A DNA stretch of 64,000 nt from a virus (Duplodnaviria > Caudoviricetes): IMG/VR virus record IMGVR_UViG_3300011008_002712; one strand, 5' to 3'. A model generated the notes under the pieces. The model searched no databases. It was given only the letters and a program-made list of their open reading frames with translations, and was not told the origin of the DNA. The translations under genes were made by a program, and so were the position numbers. Numbering within the stretch: position 1 is the stretch's first letter; each line of letters starts with the position of its first letter. Positions 3,991 through 55,805 of the stretch are shown here, piece by piece.

Positions 3991-4184
3991 TTCCTCCCTT
4001 CTATAAACAAATAAATTAGAAAGAAAAAAAAAGACTACACTGCATAATGCAAATACATAAAAAATTTGTAATGCATAGAGAAGATTTTTAACAATAATTG
4101 AAATTTTTCAGCTCATTAGTTTATTTTTTTATAGAGCGACATATTTATGCATAAAATTATATATACTTAAGGAGCGATCGCTAA

Positions 4185-4874
4185 ATGAGTTACAAATTAT
4201 TTGTAGATTCAAATGGCGTCGTATATAACGGCGCTGGCAATCAGGTTTCTGCGAGTTGGTCTAGTTTATCTGACACTCAAAAAGAAACGTTATTTTTAAA
4301 TTCTGGAAGTACAGATACTTCTTTTTCTGGACTGTCTAGCCTTGGAACGGTAAAATGTTATACATATTCTACATTTTCAGAAGCTACTCACACGTGTTCT
4401 TTAGATGTTGTTCCGTATGATCAGACAGTTCTTCCACATGGACTAATTGATTTAAGTTCTTATACAGCACTTAAATCTGTCAATATAGTATATTCATTAA
4501 GTGGTTCTGGAGCTGTAAAAATTGCAGTAACTCCAGATTTAACAAATTATTACGTATTTAATACGTCAACTAACACATGGGAAACTATTAATATTTCAAA
4601 TCTTAACAGTAATGGTATGAATGTATCACAAATTTCAAGCATTGGTGACTGGTCTATATTTGATGAAGCAAAAAAAATAGGATTTGCTTATGGACTGTCA
4701 ATTGATAGTATAAACGATACATGTAAAGTAGATAGATTAGATATTACAGTTGACGCAAACGGAAGCTGGGCAAAAGCAACAGAAAGTCAAGCAACATATA
4801 AATATCAAGGTAATACAACATTGGTCGTAAGTCTTATGGCTAATGGTGACTATAAAATCAATTATCAATCATAA
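4185..4874 (+). CDS. Putative virion structural protein (Ser/Thr-rich, beta-strand rich)
   Basis: AAGGAG RBS; composition typical of tail-associated beta proteins. Confidence 0.5.
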   Translation: MSYKLFVDSNGVVYNGAGNQVSASWSSLSDTQKETLFLNSGSTDTSFSGLSSLGTVKCYTYSTFSEATHTCSLDVVPYDQTVLPHGLIDLSSYTALKSVNIVYSLSGSGAVKIAVTPDLTNYYVFNTSTNTWETINISNLNSNGMNVSQISSIGDWSIFDEAKKIGFAYGLSIDSINDTCKVDRLDITVDANGSWAKATESQATYKYQGNTTLVVSLMANGDYKINYQS

Positions 4875-4876
4875 AA

Positions 4877-4910
4877 ATAAGTAGTTGGTAAAAATTTACC
4901 AACTACTTAT
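4877..4910. terminator. Bidirectional hairpin terminator between convergent genes
   Basis: ATAAGTAGTTGGTAAA / TTTACCAACTACTTAT inverted repeat. Confidence 0.7.
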
Positions 4911-5200
4911 TTGATATATACATCTATTTGATTTTTTCTAAAAAAGTCAGTATATTCCATGTTGCTGTATCGTTCTTTTATTTTGTATTCTATGTCACAT
5001 ATAGTATTTTGATTTAATACACACCATAACGATTCATATAAAACGTCTTGTGCTATATCAAAAATCCAACAAATGTTGGAATAATCCTTGTCGCTGACTT
5101 CATTAACTTCTAAAGTCAAAGTTGATTTATCACTAATCAAAAAAATGTCAAAATTATATACATCAAAGTTTTTCATATCTTTAACTATCATTTTTATCAT
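4907..5200 (-). CDS. Hypothetical protein (last gene of TNSSSSS operon)
   Basis: 97-aa ORF starting 5 bp after the stop of 5206..5634. Confidence 0.55.
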   Translation of the reverse strand: MIKMIVKDMKNFDVYNFDIFLISDKSTLTLEVNEVSDKDYSNICWIFDIAQDVLYESLWCVLNQNTICDIEYKIKERYSNMEYTDFFRKNQIDVYIK

Positions 5201-5205
5201 AACTA

Positions 5206-5634
5206 CTAATGGTGAGACATATAAAAAATATGCTCCATTTTTTTAAACGCACCTCCCCTATCCATTAATTGATCAAATCTTCCATTTTCTGAATAAAATT
5301 CACATGTTTGATATAGTTGTTTGTTTAATGTTCTAGCTGAAACCAATTCACTAGCGTATTTTCTGCTAATTTTTTTCAATTCATTTCTTGTTAGATTGCG
5401 CCCATCTTGGATTTCATAAAAAATGTCATACATAAGTTCGTCTATTAAAGATTCTTGAGAGATTTTTCTTGATTCTGTTTTTAATGTTTTAAGTAATTCT
5501 TCTGCATACGGTTTTACATCTTCACTCAACCATTCAGTAAGTTCATCTTGCGTTAATTCACTAATATCATTTTCTAACGCCAATACATAGCTTGATGAAG
5601 ATGAATTTGTAACGAAGTCATTTCTTATTTTCAT
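5206..5634 (-). CDS. TNSSSSS-tag protein A
   Basis: Starts MKIRNDFVTNSSSSSYV; ends ...FYMSHH. Confidence 0.85.
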   Translation of the reverse strand: MKIRNDFVTNSSSSSYVLALENDISELTQDELTEWLSEDVKPYAEELLKTLKTESRKISQESLIDELMYDIFYEIQDGRNLTRNELKKISRKYASELVSARTLNKQLYQTCEFYSENGRFDQLMDRGGAFKKMEHIFYMSHH

Positions 5635-5636
5635 TT

Positions 5637-6107
5637 TTAATGTCCTTCTACCAAAATAATGTTAGAATCTTTAGTATGTTCTCTTATTTCTTCTTGATAT
5701 TCACAATAAGGAATAAACACAATTGAATTCCCGCCATTTACTTCATTTTTTATTTTTTTGAATAGTTTATTATCGAAAAATAGTGATATGTCATAGCAAT
5801 CGATAAAAATTTCGCGCTGCATCAAAAGAAATAATTTTATTTGTGCGTAATTCATCTTTAAAGAATCAAGAAAACATACAAACTCAGAATAATCTTCAAG
5901 TTCATATGGTTCGGCATCATAAAACATGTTATAAATGTAATTTATATAGTCGCTTTGTGAAATTATTTTATCTTTATTTTTATTTACATATACATCAAAA
6001 CGATTCCTGTGAATAGAATCAAGAAAAACATTTATTTCTTCATCATTAAATGATAAAACATAGCTAGACGACGATGAATTTGTCACAAAATCATTTCTAA
6101 TTTTCAT
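5637..6107 (-). CDS. TNSSSSS-tag protein B
   Basis: Starts MKIRNDFVTNSSSSSYV; GAGGT RBS; ends ...ILVEGH. Confidence 0.85.
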   Translation of the reverse strand: MKIRNDFVTNSSSSSYVLSFNDEEINVFLDSIHRNRFDVYVNKNKDKIISQSDYINYIYNMFYDAEPYELEDYSEFVCFLDSLKMNYAQIKLFLLMQREIFIDCYDISLFFDNKLFKKIKNEVNGGNSIVFIPYCEYQEEIREHTKDSNIILVEGH

Positions 6108-6129
6108 ATCGCTACCTCTTAAATCTATT

Positions 6130-6570
6130 CTAGTAATTATTTTCTTCTAAGATAACTCCACTATGTTTAGATATTGCATATCTAACATCGGGATTGTAAT
6201 TATTGTCAACAGTGATACTATAAACAAATTTATCATTATTTAATTGTTCTTTAATTTTTTCATAACTCGAATAACTGATGTTATCAGAGATTATCGTAAT
6301 ATCACCGCTTAGAAGTAACAAAAACATCATTTGTTGCCTTGTCATTTTTAATTCTTTTGCAAATTTAATGGAATCCAAATCACTATTGTTATTGACAAAC
6401 TCTTCAAATGTTTCCCAATCATGTTCTATATTATAGATAAAATCGAAATAATCTTCTATTGATCTAAGTTCAACATGATGAAAATCAAATGTATCATCTA
6501 TTGGGTCATCAAAAGCAACTATAAACGATGAACTAGATGAATTAGTTATAAAATCTGAGCGTAATTTCAT
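6130..6570 (-). CDS. TNSSSSS-tag protein C
   Basis: Starts MKLRSDFITNSSSSSFI; GGAGG RBS. Confidence 0.85.
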   Translation of the reverse strand: MKLRSDFITNSSSSSFIVAFDDPIDDTFDFHHVELRSIEDYFDFIYNIEHDWETFEEFVNNNSDLDSIKFAKELKMTRQQMMFLLLLSGDITIISDNISYSSYEKIKEQLNNDKFVYSITVDNNYNPDVRYAISKHSGVILEENNY

Positions 6571-6609
6571 TTTAATAAAATCCTCCGATTTAAAAATTTT
6601 ATTATGAAA

Positions 6610-7752
6610 TCATTTTCTGTTAATGGAATTACACAAAACTATTTTATTTTTTATGGGGCAACCACCCATACAATTTTCTCTTTTAGTGCATTGAGGACAT
6701 GCGTTTCTCATATGATTTCTAAAATTGTCGAAAACGTCTGAATCCCATGCTTCTTGTATAGAGTTATTTCTAAGAGAAATCCCCCATTTTAATCCTTGGT
6801 CAAAACTGCAAGGAACCATTGTCATATTTGCTGATATATAAGCGCTATATCTTCCACCTTCGCACGTATCTATAGAATTGAAATCAATATTTTTAGAAAA
6901 ATTTAATACTGCTGGAACAGAGCAAGAATCAAATCCTATTTTGAATGGATGCTTTTTAGATGTCACCAAATCAAAAAATTGTTTGATTTTATTGTCATCT
7001 TCTTCAAGCGTCAACATATTTTCTATCTTACCGAGTCCAACTGGCTTATATAACAAGAAAATAATAGCATTTACTTTATTCTCTTCAAAGTTTCTTGTTT
7101 GTTCTTTATTGTTGCTATCAACAAACGTCAATTCATGTTTTTCCAATAAACCGATAGCTTCATCAATTGTTTCTTTTGACAAAACATAATGAATATTAGT
7201 TTTGCATCCGGCATGAATAAATTTATCCAATGCATCCACAGTGAATTGTTGTGCATACCAAGAAACAGCAACGGCACCACAGTACTTTTTTGTTACTTCT
7301 ACAGCATGATCAGTTAATTCAATTCCAGCTGTAGTATAATTAGGCACTATTCCATTCTCTCTAGTATATTTGCATATTTCTTCAAAATATTGATGATCGT
7401 TTGGATTGCCAGCTCCTCCTAATGCAATTTGCATTAATCCATGCTTTGCACCTTCATCTACTATCTTCTTATAATCCTCCAACTTCATATCATTGTCTGG
7501 ATTATATGGTCTTGCGCCCTGATAGCAGCCAGATCTTTTTCCACCAGCTTTACAAATTCCTTTAGAAGCTGCCTTGCATCCGCCCATAATACCAACATCC
7601 AACAATCCTGGAAACGAACGCATAAATGGATCAACATTCGTATCTTTTCCATTTTCTATAATGCCGGTTCTCATATATTTTCCAGAATTTCTGTCAAAAA
7701 TTTCCAAGAATTTATTTTTTTTATCAACAAATTTAACAATATCATTTTTCAT
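6610..7752 (-). CDS. Radical SAM/SPASM-domain protein with expanded Cys motif
   Basis: C-X7-C-X8-C-YQ, IALGGAGNP (GGE-like), NYTT, and SPASM cysteines CEGG...VPCSF...CPQC...CMGGCP. Confidence 0.85.
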   Translation of the reverse strand: MKNDIVKFVDKKNKFLEIFDRNSGKYMRTGIIENGKDTNVDPFMRSFPGLLDVGIMGGCKAASKGICKAGGKRSGCYQGARPYNPDNDMKLEDYKKIVDEGAKHGLMQIALGGAGNPNDHQYFEEICKYTRENGIVPNYTTAGIELTDHAVEVTKKYCGAVAVSWYAQQFTVDALDKFIHAGCKTNIHYVLSKETIDEAIGLLEKHELTFVDSNNKEQTRNFEENKVNAIIFLLYKPVGLGKIENMLTLEEDDNKIKQFFDLVTSKKHPFKIGFDSCSVPAVLNFSKNIDFNSIDTCEGGRYSAYISANMTMVPCSFDQGLKWGISLRNNSIQEAWDSDVFDNFRNHMRNACPQCTKRENCMGGCPIKNKIVLCNSINRK

Positions 7753-7776
7753 TCAGCATCATCCTTCCTTTTGTCT

Positions 7777-7808
7777 ATTTTATCACGCAAACAACAAAAT
7801 GTACATAG
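7777..7808 (-). promoter_or_regulatory. Sigma70-type promoter variant upstream of radical SAM gene
   Basis: Minus strand CTATGTACA-N17-TAAAAT; a one-mismatch variant of the genome-wide CTATTTACA motif. Confidence 0.55.
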
Positions 7809-7811
7809 CAT

Positions 7812-7855
7812 TAACAAAAATGTAAGAAAGATTTCGCTTTCTTACATTTTTGTTA
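7812..7855. terminator. Hairpin terminator after 7856..8332
   Basis: 19-bp perfect inverted repeat TAACAAAAATGTAAGAAAG / CTTTCTTACATTTTTGTTA. Confidence 0.7.
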
Positions 7856-8332
7856 TTACTTTAGATTCGCTTTATTCTTATTCAAAAAATCTTTGAATTC
7901 ATCAAAATCTTTGAATCTATTTAAAATTTCATTTTTTATCGTATCATCGCTTTTTTGCAATTCAATGTTTTTATACATTTCAATATCATCTGTTGATATT
8001 TGCACGAATGAACAAATTGGGCACAAGATAGGTGGAATTTCATATCTAATTTCATCATGAACTTCTTCAATTAGTTCTTCAGCTGTTCCTTCAAAATTTC
8101 TAATTTCATGCTTATCTACTTCGCAGCAATTTTCTAATTCTTTTTTTAATTCTTCTACATCAATGTTGTTAAAAGATATATGTTCATCGCAAAAAATACT
8201 TCCGCATTTATCGCATTCATTTAATCCAAAATCTCTAAAATCGACATCATAACCTGATTCTTCCCTGCCGCAGATATCGCACACATAACTTGATGATGAA
8301 GAATTTGTTACAAAATCATTTCTAATCTTCAT
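7856..8332 (-). CDS. TNSSSSS-tag protein D, Cys-rich (Zn-finger-like)
   Basis: MKIRNDFVTNSSSSSYVCDICG, then CDKC-x4-CDEH and CPIC. Confidence 0.85.
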   Translation of the reverse strand: MKIRNDFVTNSSSSSYVCDICGREESGYDVDFRDFGLNECDKCGSIFCDEHISFNNIDVEELKKELENCCEVDKHEIRNFEGTAEELIEEVHDEIRYEIPPILCPICSFVQISTDDIEMYKNIELQKSDDTIKNEILNRFKDFDEFKDFLNKNKANLK

Positions 8333-8432
8333 GAAGTAATTTCCTTTCTTTATTATTAATTACATTAAAATTATTTTCAATTTTTATTTTATCAAAGACA
8401 CGCATCAATATAAAAACTATTTTGCTAAACAA

Positions 8433-8570
8433 GTGAACGTACCACCGCCTCTATAGGCGTGGTTTCCTGCTTCAACGAGAACAGCACTGCTTCTCCGAAG
8501 AGTTGTGGCGACTTACACTCTCTCCGCAGGCGTAGATTCCCGTGCGACCCACGGTACTCTATGAGTTACA
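8433..8570 (-). ncRNA. Putative TnpB omega/reRNA scaffold (guide = flanking 8432 downward)
   Basis: GC-rich structured right-end segment ACCGTGGGTCGCACGGGAATCTACGCCTGCGGAG...GAAGCAGGAAACCAC...GTTCAC, typical of tnpB right ends; the 5' boundary is approximate. Confidence 0.65.
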
Positions 8571-9682
8571 TTAGGCGGTGGTTATGCGCCTAGCTTCCTC
8601 TCTAATATTTATTGCGGCGTTCTTATCTCTGTTGTGATGACCGCTACATTTTGGGCAATCCCATTCACGAACAGATAAGTCTTTAGTTTCGTTATTTTGA
8701 TAGCCGCAGATATGGCAAATCTGACTACTTGGGAACCATTTGTCTATCTTGACAAGCTGTTTCCCTTGCCATGCAAGTTTGTATTCCAATATGTTTGTGA
8801 ATATATTCCAACCATTATCAGCCACAGATTTGCCAAAACTGAACTTACCGCCTTTCTTGTGTTTAGCCATAGCTTTGACGCTAATATCCTCAATGCCTAT
8901 GGCATCATAACGGTCTACCAAGTAGCAGGCTTTTTTGTGCAGAAAGTCACGGCGTTGATTTGCGACCTTCTCATGAAGCGTTGCCACCCGAAGCCTCTGT
9001 TTATCTCGATTATGACTGCCTTTTTGTCTTTTGGACAACTTTCTTTGTGCCTTGGCTAATCTTTTCTCGGCTTTCCTCAAGAAATTTGGATAGTTCGCAT
9101 CATCCTCATCGGAAGCAACATACAAACCGTGCATAGTAAAGTCAAGTCCAAGAAAGTTCTTCGGTATTATGGGGAGTATTTGGTTTTCATACTCTACAAG
9201 AATACTGATGTAATATTTCTCTGATGGTGTCTTGCTTATGGTTACTGTCTTTATAGTGCTATTTTCCATCAGTGGACGGTGCAGACATAGCTTGACCCAA
9301 CCTATTTTAGGTAGCTTGATCTTGTTTTCTTTGATTCTTACAGTACCATTTTGGTTGTTCGTAGAATACGAAGCATGGCCTGTCTTCTTCGACTTGAAAC
9401 GCGGTTTGCCAAAATGCTTGCGATTCTTCCAGAAGTTGTTGTAAGCCTGATTTAGATTTAGTTGAGCATTGGCGAGAGCTAAACTATCTACTTCCTTCAG
9501 CCAAGGAAATTCAAATTTGTATTGTGCAGGGGTGTTGTTCAGTTTCTTGCCTGTCTCTTTGTAGTAGTCAATGCGGTCACTAAGCATCTTGTTATAGATG
9601 AATCTAACACAACCAAAAGTCTTAGCAAATATAATTCTTTGTTCAGTTGTTGGGTATAGTCTTATCTGTATGCCTTATTCAC
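8571..9682 (-). pseudogene. tnpB: RNA-guided endonuclease TnpB with 1-bp frameshift at codon 6
   Basis: GTG at 9682 with GAGAGGCGGTG RBS reads MNKAYR-stop; the shifted frame continues IRLYPTTEQRIIFAKTFGCVRFIYNKML. RuvC D (GLDF), E (GIED), D (NRDKNAA) and Zn ribbon CHIC/CPKC are intact. Confidence 0.85.
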
Positions 9683-9804
9683 TATAATCACCGCCTCTCA
9701 CATATAATTTTATCATAAATGAGTCACAAAGTAATTGTCTGACTCAATTACTTACGTAAATTTGCCAGGCCAACCTCTTATGTTGGGGATGAAGGTTGGT
9801 TGCG

Positions 9805-10236
9805 TTAAAAATTTAAGCTTTTCATTAAACGTTGAAGTTCTCTTTCGGATTTTTCTTCATCTTCTTTCGTCCATTCAACTTTTTCTTCAACAATATTATT
9901 TTCTTTATTATATTCCATTGTATCTTCTAATAGTTTTTCATAATCTTCAAAAAAATCATTGTACGTTGAAACTAATTTAGACAATTCTTTTTTAACATCT
10001 TCTAATTTATCGTTTGATTCTTTTATAAATTCTGCTTCTTCTTTTGCTTCAATAACTTTGCCATTAATAACAAGTTTCAGCCATTCATCACATTGTTTAT
10101 ATTGATTTTTTAATTCATAATCAAAATCTTCTATTGATTCTTCAAAATTATTGATTTGTTTTGTTATTTTATCAAAAGATGATTTTAGCTTATCGCTATT
10201 TTCAAATTTATTAGATACTTTTTTTAATCTTTTCAT
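9805..10236 (-). CDS. Coiled-coil hypothetical protein with MKRL N-terminus
   Basis: E/K-rich heptads; GGTG RBS. Confidence 0.6.
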   Translation of the reverse strand: MKRLKKVSNKFENSDKLKSSFDKITKQINNFEESIEDFDYELKNQYKQCDEWLKLVINGKVIEAKEEAEFIKESNDKLEDVKKELSKLVSTYNDFFEDYEKLLEDTMEYNKENNIVEEKVEWTKEDEEKSERELQRLMKSLNF

Positions 10237-10261
10237 TATACATCACCAAAAATTAAATAAA

Positions 10262-10492
10262 TTAATTAGCATTTTGTTTTATAAAAATGAAAAATGCCGC
10301 AAAGCACATCATTAATGCAAAAACATAAAAATTTTCTAATGATATGTAAGTTAACACGATGTCAAACATAATTAAACACAAATACATAGCAATTGTTATC
10401 ACTGTAATTGGAATAAATAAAAAGCAAAAATAGGTAATTCCTTCTCCAAACGTTTGAGAAAATCTGCAAACTAGATTTCTAGTTCTTTGCAT
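10262..10492 (-). CDS. Small membrane protein
   Basis: Two hydrophobic segments; start uncertain. Confidence 0.4.
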   Translation of the reverse strand: MQRTRNLVCRFSQTFGEGITYFCFLFIPITVITIAMYLCLIMFDIVLTYISLENFYVFALMMCFAAFFIFIKQNAN

Positions 10493-10836
10493 TCATATCC
10501 CGCCTTTTTTAACCAATCTGCAACCAGATGCCTATGACAAAAATCATTAGATTTTTCATAGCATAACAAAACAACATCTTTGCCACCAGATAAAAAATAA
10601 AAATCGTTTACTACTTGATGCGGATCTAATTTTGATAACACCTCCTCATTAAAATGTTTGATATAAAAATCATTATCATGATTTTCTTTCCACAGTTTAA
10701 AAAAACTCCATTTTGGCGCTAAAAACTTATATTCCTGACCGTTATAAAAATCAGGACATCTTCCAGCAATAGAAATTAAAAACATATCTTGGGGAATCTT
10801 TTTAATTTTTGCATAGTATGATGTATAAATTTTCAT
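10471..10836 (-). CDS. DUF488-like phage protein
   Basis: IYTSYYA...LAP...LLCYEK..FCHRHLVADWL signature. Confidence 0.75.
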   Translation of the reverse strand: MKIYTSYYAKIKKIPQDMFLISIAGRCPDFYNGQEYKFLAPKWSFFKLWKENHDNDFYIKHFNEEVLSKLDPHQVVNDFYFLSGGKDVVLLCYEKSNDFCHRHLVADWLKKAGYECKELEI

Positions 10837-10863
10837 GAATAATCACCTTCAAATTATTTTAAT

Positions 10864-10896
10864 TAGAAAACCACTAATTAAATTAGTGGTTTTCTA
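10864..10896. terminator. Hairpin terminator after uraA
   Basis: TAGAAAACCACTAAT / ATTAGTGGTTTTCTA. Confidence 0.65.
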
Positions 10897-10902
10897 TCAA
10901 AA

Positions 10903-12153
10903 TCATTTATAAGCCATTTTATTTCTAATAACAAAAATTATTTTAATGAGTAATGAAAGAATAACAGCTACAACAGTTGATAATGACATACCAACTAAAG
11001 AAACTGCACCAATTGTAATGCTTGCAGACGATACACCAATGCCTAAAACAACAGATGTAAGAATTAGATTAACTGATTTACCGTAATCAACTTTTGAATC
11101 TACAAAAATCCTGATTCCGGAGACAGCAATCAATCCAAACAGTAATAAAGATACTCCTCCCATTACTGGAGTTGGAATTGATTGAATCAACGCAGCCAAT
11201 TTGCCGAAACAAGATAAAATGATAGCAAACACAGCTGCGCCTCCAATTACCCAAGTAGAAAATACTTTGGAAATTGCTAAAACGCCAATGTTTTCAGCAT
11301 ATGTTGTATTAGGTGTTGATCCAAAAAATCCAGAAAACATAGTAGAAATACCATTTCCAAGAAGAGAACGATCCAATCCAGGATCTTTTGTTAAATCTTT
11401 TCCAACAATGTTTCCAGTCACAATTAAATGGCCAATGTGTTCAACCACAACGACGAATGCCGCTGGAAGAATAATCAATGCAGCAGAAAGATTAAATGTT
11501 GGTTCATAAAAAGTTGGCAATGCAAATATTGGCGCTGCATAAACAATCGATAAATCAACAATTCCCATATACAATGATAATGCATACCCGCAAACAACGC
11601 CGATTAAAATTGGTATGATTGAAAGGAATCCCCTAAAAGCTACTGAAACGATAATCGTAACTAATAATGTAAATAATGAAACAAAAACATTGTCAATATT
11701 TAATTGATCTCCAACAAGTCCTGCCATCTTAGCCGCTGTTGGCATAAGTTCTAAACCAATCACTGCAATGATTGCACCCATAGCCGCTGGAGGGAATAAC
11801 ATATCAATCCATTTTGTTCCAGCATATTTAATAATTAGTGCTACTAAACAGAAAACTAATCCTGAAAGTATAAAACCTCCCAAAGCAGTAGAATAATCAT
11901 AATTTGTAAGCACTAAGAAAACTGGAGATAAAAATGCAAAACTTGAACCAAGATATGCTGGAATCTTGCCTTTACATAAAATCAAATAAAATAATGTGCC
12001 AATACCATTAAACAACAAACATGTAGCAGGATTAATGTTAAAAAGAATTGGCACTAAAATTGTAGAACCAAACATTGCAAACAGATGTTGCAAACTTAGA
12101 GGAATAGCTTTTAAGATTGGCGGTTTTTCTTGTACTTGAATAATCTTTCCCAT
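10903..12153 (-). CDS. uraA: Uracil permease (NCS2 family)
   Basis: SLQHLFAMFG, YLGSSFAF, EHIGH, PNTTYAENIGV NCS2 signature; many TM helices. Confidence 0.92.
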   Translation of the reverse strand: MGKIIQVQEKPPILKAIPLSLQHLFAMFGSTILVPILFNINPATCLLFNGIGTLFYLILCKGKIPAYLGSSFAFLSPVFLVLTNYDYSTALGGFILSGLVFCLVALIIKYAGTKWIDMLFPPAAMGAIIAVIGLELMPTAAKMAGLVGDQLNIDNVFVSLFTLLVTIIVSVAFRGFLSIIPILIGVVCGYALSLYMGIVDLSIVYAAPIFALPTFYEPTFNLSAALIILPAAFVVVVEHIGHLIVTGNIVGKDLTKDPGLDRSLLGNGISTMFSGFFGSTPNTTYAENIGVLAISKVFSTWVIGGAAVFAIILSCFGKLAALIQSIPTPVMGGVSLLLFGLIAVSGIRIFVDSKVDYGKSVNLILTSVVLGIGVSSASITIGAVSLVGMSLSTVVAVILSLLIKIIFVIRNKMAYK

Positions 12154-38850: not shown

Positions 38851-39404
38851 TGAAATTTCAGATTGTGCAGTTTTTCATTAGAGATTTTTCCTGTTACTTC
38901 TTCAAATACTATCTGTGCAATGATTAAATTTGGATAAATGTCTATTATGTTACGAGTCGCATTATATAACCCAATATACAAATATCCATTAAAATTGGGA
39001 TCTATATGTTGGTCATACATAATCAATCCTAATTTAATCAATGTTCGCCATGAGCGTAAGTGTGCAGTCATATTTTCAGGCATAGATAATTTTTCTTTTG
39101 TTTTTACTAAGATGTATTCACCAGGTTTGATATGATATCCATTAGCAATTTCAATTTTATGAGAAATTAATTCTATTTGTTTTTTGTTATTCAAATTAAC
39201 AATCTCATTTAAAGACTGATACACTATGGCTACTTTTCCTGATAAAATACAATATGATGTTGTTTGTAGTTGTTTTTCGTTAAAAGGTTCTAATAATTTA
39301 TTATTAGCAACTAATTCTCTTATTTTTTGATCTGACAACATAAAAACACCAGTTTCTATATAAAAATAAAAAATTACCAAGCAATTAATTTTAATCTTTA
39401 GCAT
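38844..39404 (-). CDS. dcd: dCTP deaminase-like protein (active site degenerate)
   Basis: MLSD..I, I.PGEYILV.T.E...MP, IDP.F.G, IAQIVF; RSS and the catalytic Glu are replaced. Confidence 0.65.
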   Translation of the reverse strand: MLKIKINCLVIFYFYIETGVFMLSDQKIRELVANNKLLEPFNEKQLQTTSYCILSGKVAIVYQSLNEIVNLNNKKQIELISHKIEIANGYHIKPGEYILVKTKEKLSMPENMTAHLRSWRTLIKLGLIMYDQHIDPNFNGYLYIGLYNATRNIIDIYPNLIIAQIVFEEVTGKISNEKLHNLKFHW

Positions 39405-39745
39405 CCATCATACGTCATCTCAATAGCAGGCGAACCTTCAAAAACACTATTGAATAAATCTTCTAGCATGAACGAATAATCTTGTGCAATTGATTTTCTG
39501 TATATCTTACAATCTTTAACTTTTTCTACATCTACATTTTGATCAGAAAGAATATGCATGATATACTCATCTTTTTCTTCAAATTCTTTTGTGATATCTT
39601 CTGCTTTATATGTTTCATAATCATCAGTCGCATCTAAAAATCCATCTAAAAATTTCTTTTCTGTATCATTCAACAGATCTTCGTGAACAAAAATAATAAA
39701 ACTTGAGCTTGACGAGTTAGTTACAAAATCTTCTCTTATTCTCAT
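39398..39745 (-). CDS. TNSSSSS-tag protein E (orphan copy)
   Basis: MRIREDFVTNSSSSSFI; AGGAGG RBS. Confidence 0.85.
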   Translation of the reverse strand: MRIREDFVTNSSSSSFIIFVHEDLLNDTEKKFLDGFLDATDDYETYKAEDITKEFEEKDEYIMHILSDQNVDVEKVKDCKIYRKSIAQDYSFMLEDLFNSVFEGSPAIEMTYDGC

Positions 39746-50069: not shown

Positions 50070-51308
50070 TCACATATCTAAAAGTATGCATTCTAATGCC
50101 TTTAATATTTTGATCCTTTCATTTCTTACATAATCTTTGATTTTCTTGCCTTCCTTCATGCTAGAAGGAATTTGTATTTTAGTATCACATATTTTGCTCT
50201 GAATTTCTTTATTCAAAAACCATGGAACGTTTTGCCCATCATTTTTTACAATCAATGCAATTTTGTCTATATCAAACCCATTCCTTTTTATTTTAACCAG
50301 CAAATCAACAATCTTTGCATGTTTTTTCATTTTAGCTACTTTCATGTGAGAACTGCATGTAATTGCTGCTGCTTTTTTCCATTCATTCGGATAAGCTGAT
50401 GGTAAGTCATTAACGATATTGGCTCCTCTTATGTCATGCATAAAATGATGAGGAAGTTCTTCTTTAGGAGTCAATCCCTTTCCAACATCATGCATTAGCG
50501 CAGCAAAACGTGTTGTAATATCACTTGTAGCTTGAGAAACATCATCCAAAATTTTCATAGTGTGATTATACGCATCTCCTTCTGGATGAAATTTTTCAGA
50601 ATGAGTTTGGCCAATAAGTCTATATATAAAAGGAAAACATACATCTAAAATATTAGCAATCTTTAAAGCTTCAAAGAAAATAGATGGTTTGTCTGTAGCG
50701 AGAGCTTTTTTCAATTCTTCTACAATACGATCCTGAGACATTTCTTTGAGTTCTTCTTTGCATTTATTCATCATATCAAATGTATAATCATTAATCTTGA
50801 AATTGAATTTCGCAGATTGCCTAGCTGCACGAAGAGCACGCAAAGGATCCTCAAGAAAATGTTCAGATACAGCACAAATTCTTTTGTTATTTATGTCTTC
50901 AATCCCATGAAAATAATCAATAATTTCATGAGTATCAACATCTTCTGCTAATGCATTCATTGTCAAATCTCTGCGGTATAAATCTTCTTTCAATGTCACA
51001 GATGGGTCGAAAACTACTTCAAATCCATTATGTCCAGAAGCTATTTTACGTTCTTTTCTTGCAAAAGCAAATTCTACTTCGCCAAAGTTGTCAACATCCA
51101 TTCTATATACAGGAAACGATTTGCCTGTCATCTTTGCTTCAGGAAAAAGTTTTTCAAAAATAGTTTGTTCAATACCGACAACCACAACATCAACATCATG
51201 ACAAGAGATGCTGAGAAGTTTGTCCCTAACAGCACCACCAACGATGTATATTTTTCCGTTATGTTGTTTTAATATATTATTAATTTCTTTTAATGTCATA
51301 AAAGTCAC
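50070..51308 (-). CDS. cca: CCA-adding tRNA nucleotidyltransferase with HD domain
   Basis: VGGAVRD, DVDVVV, ARKE, EDLYRRDLTMNALA, EDPLR.LR.AR, H(P)EGD..HT, MHDVGK. Confidence 0.9.
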   Translation of the reverse strand: MTFMTLKEINNILKQHNGKIYIVGGAVRDKLLSISCHDVDVVVVGIEQTIFEKLFPEAKMTGKSFPVYRMDVDNFGEVEFAFARKERKIASGHNGFEVVFDPSVTLKEDLYRRDLTMNALAEDVDTHEIIDYFHGIEDINNKRICAVSEHFLEDPLRALRAARQSAKFNFKINDYTFDMMNKCKEELKEMSQDRIVEELKKALATDKPSIFFEALKIANILDVCFPFIYRLIGQTHSEKFHPEGDAYNHTMKILDDVSQATSDITTRFAALMHDVGKGLTPKEELPHHFMHDIRGANIVNDLPSAYPNEWKKAAAITCSSHMKVAKMKKHAKIVDLLVKIKRNGFDIDKIALIVKNDGQNVPWFLNKEIQSKICDTKIQIPSSMKEGKKIKDYVRNERIKILKALECILLDM

Positions 51309-54584: not shown

Positions 54585-55805
54585 TCAATGATTCATTCGC
54601 CAATCAATGCAACGTTTCAGATAATTGACATATTCTTCGTTTTTACACATTCCTTTTCCAACAGTATCAGAGATTTTAGCTACATCTTGCCCATTGCACT
54701 TTGTTACTTTCATGACAATATTGAGAGCTGGAACATCTGTGTCATTACTAAGATACGTTCCAATTCCAAATGCAACATTTGTGCGTGCGTTGAAATGTTT
54801 ATTGATTGCATTCGCTCTTTCAAAATCTAAACTGTCGCTGAAAAGAAGAGTCTTTGCATTCGGATTAATTCCAAGTTTATTATAATGCTGAATAATTTTT
54901 TCTCCCCATTCAATTGGATCCCCAGAATCATGTCTTACGCCAGAAAACAAAGTAGCAAATGTCAAATCAAAATCTCTCAAAAAACAATCGGTAGTAATAG
55001 TGTCAGTCAATGCAATACCATTCAATACTCCATATTCTTTTACCCAAGACCTCAATGCATAATAGTTACTGTATGCCGGGTTGTGCTTGTGGTTTCCTTG
55101 ACCAACACACATGAGATATTCATGCGCCATTGTTCCAACTGGAGTAACATTGTATTTTTTTGCCAAAAATATATTGCTCGTACCAACAAAATAACTCCCC
55201 GTATCTGAGCACTTATTGATTTTTGCCAATTCTTTTACTGCCAATTCTTGAGCTTCAGAAGACAATCTTCTCCGCAGTCCAAATTCAGAAAAATTAGAAA
55301 TACAATATTTGCCAGACATAAGATTATTGATTTTTTCTTTTAATCTTGCTTGAAAAGACTTGAAAAGATCATTATAATCATATTGCATTCTAAAATATGT
55401 TTCATTGACAATGGCAAGAATTGGTATTTCATACATGGATGTATTTAACCAAGTTCCTTTTGCTTCTATGGACAACCCACATGGAGAATCTGTAGTAACC
55501 TCGATGTCTTCATATCTTGGTTTCCAAAGTCTAAGAAAATCAATATATGATCCTTTCAGCCATTTGATGTCGTCAAGATATCTAAGCTCATCTTCTGTAA
55601 ATCTCAAACCGCAATAATGTTTGATTTGCTCTTTTATTTCTTCTACCATTTCTTGAGTAAAATGAACATCCTTGTTTCTACACTTGAATGTCCAAGTTGT
55701 CTTATATGATGGAAACAAGTGATATATAGCCTGTCCCATACTCATTTTATAAAGATCATTCTCAAGCAGTGAAGTAATAATGGCATTCAATTTCATTTGG
55801 CACAC
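54585..55805 (-). CDS. pncB: Nicotinate phosphoribosyltransferase
   Basis: DLYK.SM, EFGLRRR, GTSN, GTMAHE, LTDT, GVRHDSGDP, FSDSL, FGIGT, KISD..GK. Confidence 0.92.
   Translation of the reverse strand: MCQMKLNAIITSLLENDLYKMSMGQAIYHLFPSYKTTWTFKCRNKDVHFTQEMVEEIKEQIKHYCGLRFTEDELRYLDDIKWLKGSYIDFLRLWKPRYEDIEVTTDSPCGLSIEAKGTWLNTSMYEIPILAIVNETYFRMQYDYNDLFKSFQARLKEKINNLMSGKYCISNFSEFGLRRRLSSEAQELAVKELAKINKCSDTGSYFVGTSNIFLAKKYNVTPVGTMAHEYLMCVGQGNHKHNPAYSNYYALRSWVKEYGVLNGIALTDTITTDCFLRDFDLTFATLFSGVRHDSGDPIEWGEKIIQHYNKLGINPNAKTLLFSDSLDFERANAINKHFNARTNVAFGIGTYLSNDTDVPALNIVMKVTKCNGQDVAKISDTVGKGMCKNEEYVNYLKRCIDWRMNH

Follow-up and report, generated by a model that had tools for sequence, protein, structure and literature searches.

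Why would a bacteriophage encode several small proteins that begin with nearly the same 17 residues and differ in most of what follows, and what is the role of the radical S-adenosylmethionine (SAM) enzyme encoded among them? This question is raised by the genes at positions 5,206 to 8,332 of a 64,000-nucleotide stretch of the IMG/VR virus record IMGVR_UViG_3300011008_002712 (Caudoviricetes), which is referred to here as the window and to which all positions belong unless another locus is named. In this block, four open reading frames (ORFs) with a common N-terminal tag bracket a gene for a radical SAM enzyme of the SPASM type. An earlier note on this DNA had proposed that the tag is a recognition leader or a modification site for the enzyme. 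Here, we characterize the tag, the enzyme and their joint distribution by comparative genomics, profile searches and structure prediction, and our results strongly support a functional pairing of one enzyme with many clients, as the tagged proteins are called below.

SPASM enzymes are known to act on peptide or protein substrates that are encoded alongside them, anSME and QhpD being examples. The canonical radical SAM motif, CX3CX2C, binds the [4Fe-4S] cluster that cleaves SAM, and the seven-cysteine SPASM motif (CX9-15GX4C ... CX2CX5CX3C ... C) holds two auxiliary clusters.

Four proteins with a common N-terminal tag surround a radical SAM/SPASM gene

The four tagged ORFs, at 5206-5634, 5637-6107, 6130-6570 and 7856-8332, are all on the minus strand and share the N-terminal sequence MK[IL]R[NS]DF[VI]TNSSSSS[YF][VI], downstream of which they diverge; re-reading of the sequence bore out this arrangement around the SPASM gene as it had been described before. 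In the order of transcription, the block opens with client 1 (8332-7856), a 158-residue protein with a Cys-rich, zinc-finger-like body containing nine Cys, which is followed after a gap of 103 nt by the gene of the 380-residue enzyme (7752-6610), assigned through matches to Pfam SPASM and Radical_SAM and to phrog_7293. Client 2 (6570-6130; 146 residues) is acidic and appears to be a weak paralog of client 3 according to sequence, phmmer and hhalign; client 3 (6107-5637; 156 residues), characterized by sequence and phmmer, is also acidic and ends in VEGH. Client 4 (5634-5206; 142 residues) was placed by sequence, jackhmmer and AlphaFold2 (AF2) in a widespread family of bodies ending in SHH. An untagged ORF of 97 residues and no family match (5200-4907, minus strand) starts 5 nt downstream of client 4 and is probably transcribed with the block as its last gene, and a terminator-like hairpin with a 17-bp stem and a T run, predicted by consensus scan only (4875-4912, minus strand), stands at the end of the block. 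Within the 103-nt gap between client 1 and the enzyme gene, the sequence forms a perfect inverted repeat of 19 bp around a 6-nt loop (7812-7855), whose function could be that of an attenuator or of a site for processing or protein binding.

The window is part of a single contig of 416,024 bp with a G+C content of 29.7%, and its ORFs match PHROGs families of tail fibres, polymerase, nicotinamide phosphoribosyltransferase (NAMPT) and tRNA nucleotidyltransferase; given these matches and the size of the contig, the genome belongs to a very large phage. It encodes one copy of the enzyme and nine tagged ORFs of 111-166 residues, five of them in the window and four outside. The fifth tagged paralog of the window was found by tag search at 39398-39745 (minus strand; 115 residues), 31 kb from the enzyme gene, and the five tagged window proteins are all acidic (pI 4.2-5.1).

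Every tagged start in the genome is preceded at 6-10 nt by a Shine-Dalgarno-like AGGA or GGAGG, and in three of the nine ORFs an in-frame stop lies one codon upstream of the start, which together argue that the tag is the true N-terminus. The nine tags are 75% identical in nucleotides and 82% in amino acids, and half of the identical residues are encoded by different codons; selection is thus on the tag peptide, not on the DNA. The earlier note had come to the same view from the mixture of TCN and AGY codons in the Ser runs of the four clients, and these codons were found to be as it listed them (TCA TCT TCA TCA AGC / TCA TCG TCG TCT AGC / TCA TCT AGT TCA TCG / TCT TCA TCA TCA AGT).

With regard to known motifs, readings of the tag as a sulfatase-type motif, as a PP-loop or P-loop and as a signal peptide were rejected from the sequence, as was the bacterial N-glycosylation sequon D/E-x-N-x-S/T, for which the Asp of the tag is placed at -4, not -2.

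Tag and enzyme occur together in viral and bacterial genomes

Loci were collected by seeding with the tag in IMG/VR (403 pattern matches, 152 of them confirmed), with the tag in prokaryotic genomes at one genome per species (145 confirmed, mostly from gut and rumen Firmicutes), and with the enzyme in viral sequences (279 confirmed), and the best 80 confirmed loci of each series were inspected. The 80 from IMG/VR correspond to 76 distinct loci, with a total of 225 tagged ORFs, grouped in arrays that reach seven members. A strong enzyme homolog (E 1e-17 to 1e-188) was found within 6 kb and on the same strand in 62 of these 76, most of the 14 exceptions being accounted for by contig ends, by a second locus on an enzyme-bearing contig, or by loci with another radical SAM gene alongside. 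In the prokaryotic series such a homolog was present within the same distance and on the same strand in 76 of 80 loci, the usual bacterial form being a two-gene cassette in which a tagged protein of about 124 residues is encoded directly upstream of the enzyme. Conversely, 76 of the 80 enzyme-seeded viral loci have a tagged ORF within 6 kb when variant tags (G, S or A at position 6; H or Y at position 7) are allowed, a relaxed motif which gives a single false match in the whole 416-kb genome.

The same association was observed at the level of genomes. The family of Dorea sp. 5-2 was sampled with 301 genomes, of which eight are positive for the enzyme and six for the tag, and all six are included in the eight (Fisher p = 2.9e-11), with the tag at 0.3-1.7 kb from the enzyme; the tag was found in none of the 293 enzyme-negative genomes. 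The seventh enzyme-positive genome carries a tag variant with G at position 6 on a 789-residue protein encoded directly downstream of the enzyme (L241, 847-3216, minus strand), and the eighth holds an enzyme fragment only, on a short contig. Wide occurrence of the tag in genomes lacking this enzyme clade, which the earlier note had named as the observation that would speak against a pairing, is the opposite of what these genomes and the three series of loci display.

Rare variants of the tag, with G, S or A at position 6 or H at position 7, are common to all the unrelated paralogs of a locus, as seen in L198 (G/G), L204 (G/A/A, with His7) and L210 (S/S). Three such pure variant loci were counted, versus 0.1 expected under shuffling (p = 0.0002, in a small sample), a pattern that would fit co-adaptation of the tags to one common partner.

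In one phage lineage, tag genes are found near members of a second radical SAM family, which lie directly beside them in L032 (6416-7459), L069 (6674-7756) and L076 (6393-7436) and about 4 kb downstream in L013 (10647-11714). These proteins have a canonical CX3CX2C motif and match Pfam Radical_SAM at 1e-12, with no SPASM match at E <= 0.001; therefore, the tag is paired with more than one enzyme clade. In this lineage, the pair adjoins ORFs whose N-termini resemble Rad50/Mre11 (SbcCD), as judged by eye only.

Features of the paired enzyme

The enzyme matches Pfam SPASM with 29.3 bits (cut-off 21.5), TIGR04085 with 27.0 bits, a score equal to the cut-off of 27, and phrog_7293; it also matches NCBIfam radical SAM maturase models at E 1e-9 to 1e-3, all of them far under their cut-offs. 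In an alignment of 44 sequences, C59, C67 and C76 align with the CX3CX2C motif of basal homologs, and C59 and C76 are invariant in 70 homologs. Across both sets the spacing of this triad differs by clade, namely CX3CX2C in the clade with a single SHH client of about 166 residues, CX5CX3C, CX7CX6C, and the C-x7-C-x8-C of the window. The SAM-binding GGE-type motif is present as LGGxGxP (GGAGNP in the window, consensus GGxGDP), with G112, G113 and G115 invariant in the 70 homologs, and seven SPASM cysteines are conserved (C297, C315, C352-x2-C355-x5-C361-x3-C365-x8-C374), the first half of the motif being C-x17-C without the usual Gly. The first 50 or so residues of the enzyme are highly conserved (F19, G24, Y26, R28, G30, D41-F43 and P48) and constitute a candidate tag-binding element, as suggested by this conservation. 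A PqqD domain or RiPP recognition element (RRE; RiPP, a peptide made on the ribosome and modified post-translationally) was not detected among Pfam matches at E <= 0.1. The nearest solved enzymes are SkfB, PqqE and BtrN, which have SPASM or twitch domains, at E of about 1e-3 only.

Further relatives of the enzyme are found in phages. In L007 (1520-3880), the homologous gene is split by an intein that includes a LAGLIDADG endonuclease domain, forming an ORF of 786 residues. T4-like phages of Klebsiella, Enterobacter and Escherichia (RB16, RB43, KP27 and others; 173 records) encode an enzyme of 26% identity, also of phrog_7293, with the spacing C-x7-C-x2-C, and no tagged ORF was found in the approximately 5 kb read around this gene in Escherichia phage RB16 (L001, 90403-91557). 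Judging from that neighbourhood, the T4-like clade may stand outside the tag system or may have another client.

Diversity of the tagged proteins

The tag family is large. When 1.84 billion cluster representatives were searched with a 33-position profile of the tag, 16,579 matched at E <= 1e-3, 328 of them at E <= 1e-10, and nearly all the top matches carry the tag at residues 1-33. When the first 20 residues were removed from 264 unique proteins, the remainders fell into 47 BLAST clusters. Comparison of the tag-less bodies by hhalign gave probabilities of 80-93% among two SHH groups and client 4, 87% for one further pair and 35% for clients 2 and 3, which are also related at a phmmer E of 1e-5; all other pairs stayed below 15%. 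The description of the four bodies as dissimilar has to be amended in that clients 2 and 3 are weak paralogs and that the body of client 4 belongs to the SHH family.

By jackhmmer, client 4 has relatives in a family whose members end in SHH and in which D6, T9, N10, S11-13, S15 and H142 are invariant. The body of client 1 belongs to a zinc-finger-like subfamily of 28 members with invariant Cys (C18, C21, C40, C48, C104 and C107). The tag also occurs on a 470-residue leucine-rich repeat (LRR) protein of BspA type, encoded directly beside the enzyme in a metagenome-assembled genome of Bacteroidales (L155, 1456-2868). Four database proteins contain two tags (P0030, P0028, P0074 and P0141), and most of these resemble a read-through of adjacent genes in which an internal MK[IV]R has been kept. 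In public records, bacterial members go by the names 'hypothetical protein' and 'radical SAM/SPASM domain protein'.

AF2 models were built for client 4 and client 1, each with the alignment of its own subfamily. Client 4 was modelled with a predicted local distance difference test (pLDDT) of 85.7, with strands at residues 13-20, 106-109 and 136-140 and with residues 1-10 below 50; client 1 was modelled with a pLDDT of 81.7 and a strand at 13-17, its residues 9-11 being below 50 and its first ten residues averaging 50. These low values indicate that the stretch in question (1-10 or 9-11) may be free to dock. No fold match at E <= 0.001 was found for client 4 (Foldseek against PDB, VIA wide and BFVD) or for client 1 (Foldseek against PDB); the best VIA match (Z 6.7) covers a helical hairpin only, and client 1 displays local, weak zinc-finger resemblances in PDB. 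Prediction of a complex from the alignments of the enzyme and client 4, with SAM and three 4Fe-4S clusters, scored 0.01 versus a mark of 0.32, a result that weighs neither way.

Genomic surroundings of the module

In bacteria, the commonest products among 131 neighbours of the two-gene cassette are HTH_3 proteins, predicted AAA ATPases, PD-(D/E)XK nucleases, AbiEii-type AAA_21 proteins and recombinases, so that, judged by gene content, the surroundings look like mobile or defence-island regions. No constant third gene, recurrent protease, exporter or transporter was found among these 131 neighbours. PADLOC gave no match for the window enzyme and two window clients, and bacterial homologs matched at chance level (E 0.001-0.016).

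In the window, a gene of the TnpB/IS605 OrfB type (8571-9587, minus strand; OrfB_IS605 2.4e-27, Cas12f1-like_TNB 1.2e-22) lies directly upstream of the block. The G+C content of the stretch at 8-10 kb, 36.8%, is above that of the neighbouring stretches, which suggests an insertion into the phage genome. The phage also encodes a DUF488-N3a protein (10471-10836, minus strand; Pfam 9.7e-15), whose N-terminus is resembled, by eye only, by that of an ORF near a tagged gene in L045 (8730-9095), a second locus of the 504-kb IMG/VR contig 3300028886_000026, which also carries the closest enzyme homolog. Further along on the minus strand are genes for tRNA nucleotidyltransferase (50070-51308; phrog_2244, 3e-91), NAMPT (54585-55805; phrog_448) and a polymerase (59807-60994; phrog_23333), three functions typical of very large phages.

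Direct searches for relatives returned little. Megablast of window positions 4000-12000 against phage records gave no match, and neither did tblastn of client 2 against phages, in which the low-complexity filter probably masks the Ser run; a word-index search with client 4 found the protein itself and one relative of 86% identity, and no more.

Discussion

The near-obligate pairing with the enzyme and the number of clients strongly support that part of the earlier proposal in which one enzyme serves a set of client proteins; its other part, covalent modification, is an inference from this linkage. In the reading that we favour, the block would be the phage copy of a widespread two-part module formed by a radical SAM/SPASM enzyme and one to about ten clients, which would have in common only the tag, M-K-[IVF]-[RK]-x-D-[FYH]-[VI]-T-N-S-S-S-[ST]-S-[FY]-[IV]. 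The first 10-12 tag residues, of low confidence in the models, would dock into the enzyme, a SAM-derived radical would take a hydrogen atom, and a covalent change would be left inside the tag. Candidate chemistries include oxidation of a Ser C-beta, giving a formylglycine-like product, or formation of a cross-link in which the aromatic residue 7, Thr9 or the Ser run takes part, so that the Ser-derived cofactor or cross-link suggested in the earlier note is one among several possibilities; thioethers are excluded, since the tag has no Cys. Individual functions would reside in the variable bodies (zinc finger, helical acidic, LRR), most likely in phage-host conflict. Direct recognition and radical modification of the tag are proposed because characterized SPASM enzymes with an adjacent partner act in this manner (anSME, QhpD, CrpC-CrpA, HxsB/C-HxsA), and by this analogy we give about an even chance to an enzyme that, having recognized the tag, alters it covalently on many clients. 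A more specific version is put forward only tentatively, namely that a Ser, Thr9 or the aromatic residue 7 becomes a new group or cross-link that would act in phage-host conflict as an N-terminal warhead, cofactor or handle on more than 16,000 otherwise unrelated families, through a chemistry new among SPASM enzymes.

Several results weigh against this reading. Pfam Radical_SAM (PF04055) matches the enzyme with 24.8 bits, under its cut-off of 29.5, probably because of the insertion in the Cys motif, and the cluster motif itself is non-canonical (C59-x7-C67-x8-C76), for which reasons enzymatic activity is an assumption. Five of the nine tagged genes of the phage are far from the enzyme gene, and the frequencies of pairing were obtained from the best 80 loci of each series. 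In both models, tag residues 13-17/20, including the last Ser, constitute the first beta-strand of the body and would therefore be reachable only before folding. P0030 is a tandem duplication of tag and body in which the internal tag has no Met, which indicates that the tag does not require a free N-terminus in every case and may begin a domain. Finally, the SHH bodies keep polar residues of their own, the near-invariant D115 and S140 together with H142, and these could form an intrinsic site with the tag.

Some of these features bring to mind an alternative in which the tag is the first strand and the active-site or ligand loop of a single fast-evolving superfamily, whose members would bind or use a small molecule or cofactor from the enzyme with no direct chemistry between enzyme and tag. 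The strand at residues 13-17/20, the internal copy in P0030, the combination of invariant D6, T9, N10, Ser run and C-terminal His with D115 and S140 in the SHH family, and the weak homology of bodies between some subfamilies would all be explained in this way. However, most bodies share no profile similarity in the absence of the tag, and they include a protein of 789 residues as well as a zinc-finger type and an LRR protein; moreover, the most conserved residues (1-12) include a stretch below 50 pLDDT in both models. The earlier note had considered that the tag might be simply the first strand of a shared fold, which applies to residues 13-17/20 and not to residues 1-10 or 9-11, and we regard this explanation as quite improbable. 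Synteny and co-variation would be the same if the tag were an unmodified docking handle and the variable bodies presented the enzyme with third-party targets, for instance host proteins or nucleic acids, or regulated it, much as F-box proteins join a constant handle to variable binders. The presence of binding modules among the bodies (LRR and Cys-rich fingers) and of one enzyme for nine partners in the genome are in line with such adaptors; nevertheless, SPASM enzymes are known to act on the product of the adjacent gene, a run of five Ser with an invariant Thr-Asn would be odd for a pure docking motif, and the commonest bacterial form, one enzyme with one partner of about 124 residues, offers no diversity to exploit, so that we consider adaptors unlikely.

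The internal proteins of T4, which are thought to act against the host, likewise combine a constant N-terminal peptide with small, hypervariable bodies; this peptide is a capsid-targeting sequence that the prohead protease removes, and the proteins are packaged in the capsid. The tag on the arrayed phage proteins could by the same token be a packaging, secretion or degradation signal with an indirect link to the enzyme. In T4, however, the prohead protease is the only enzyme partner of the peptide, whereas a dedicated radical SAM enzyme, needless for a signal, is present in about 95% of the loci. Furthermore, the tag lacks a hydrophobic stretch of the kind found in signal peptides, as read directly from the sequence, and it occurs in two-gene cassettes of bacterial chromosomes with no phage structural genes nearby, outside prophages, which argues against a capsid-targeting sequence of the T4 type. 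Taken together, these points make a targeting signal very improbable.

Modification of the tag by its enzyme, the reading favoured above, has partial counterparts among described systems. AnSME/AtsB are likewise SPASM enzymes that act on whole proteins through a short motif, oxidize Ser or Cys, have many clients and do not require adjacency. In contrast, their (C/S)-x-(P/A)-x-R motif is absent from the tag, which is located at the extreme N-terminus, and sulfatases are one homologous family whereas the tagged bodies are mostly unrelated; in addition, no anSME model was found among the NCBIfam matches of the enzyme at E <= 0.1. RiPP systems such as streptide (SuiB/SuiA), ranthipeptides (CteB) and sactipeptides share with the module a conserved N-terminal recognition segment ahead of a remainder that varies, several precursors for each enzyme and tight linkage on the same strand. 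Their precursors, however, have fewer than 60 residues, while the clients are proteins of 100-790 residues, two of which fold confidently in AF2; neither an RRE/PqqD in the enzyme nor a recurrent protease or exporter beside the cassette was detected here, and with the invariant part as the sole candidate site, leader and core would coincide. In its way of working, the module resembles anSME or a RiPP maturase guided by a leader, yet it belongs with neither.

Full-size proteins of the same gene cluster are modified by SPASM enzymes in CrpC-CrpA of Methanococcus voltae, in which CrpC has a predicted RRE (PMC13692751), and in QhpD-QhpC; unlike the tag, which has no Cys, these substrates are Cys-rich and receive Cys thioethers. 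In the HXS antiphage system of bacteria, the periplasmic effector HxsA, which contains His-x-Ser repeats, is matured by two enzymes, HxsB and HxsC, and HxsD is a further component (PMC13128918). A protein effector matured by radical SAM enzymes, a setting of phage-host conflict, a modified motif that contains Ser and an N-terminus involved in maturation recall the module, which differs in having one enzyme of its clade, an N-terminal Ser run, clients free of HxS repeats and a mainly phage-encoded distribution. In the conflict systems described by Kaur et al. (2020), the peptides found beside SPASM enzymes have a C-terminal FxSxx that is conserved, a different arrangement (PMC7159879). Only analogues were found in the full-text literature, and no description of the tag motif or of the tag-enzyme pair, in agreement with the earlier note, which knew of no functional account of the pairing. 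The pair probably represents a means, as yet undescribed, by which whole proteins are marked chemically.

The known roles of radical SAM/SPASM enzymes lie chiefly in making small modified peptides and in maturing a few specific proteins, and the layout found here is different, with one enzyme tied to a portable 17-residue N-terminal tag on thousands of unrelated small proteins, in the form of arrays of up to ten in giant phages and of a two-gene cassette in gut Firmicutes. Hypervariable bodies carried by phages make a role of the system in phage-host conflict probable, and cultured hosts exist in Dorea sp. 5-2, Butyrivibrio sp. XPD2006 and Fretibacterium fastidiosum. If the tag is modified, this would amount to a novel whole-protein post-translational modification whose natural repertoire of clients is very large, and the tag itself would provide a ready-made short sequence for enzymatic protein labelling.

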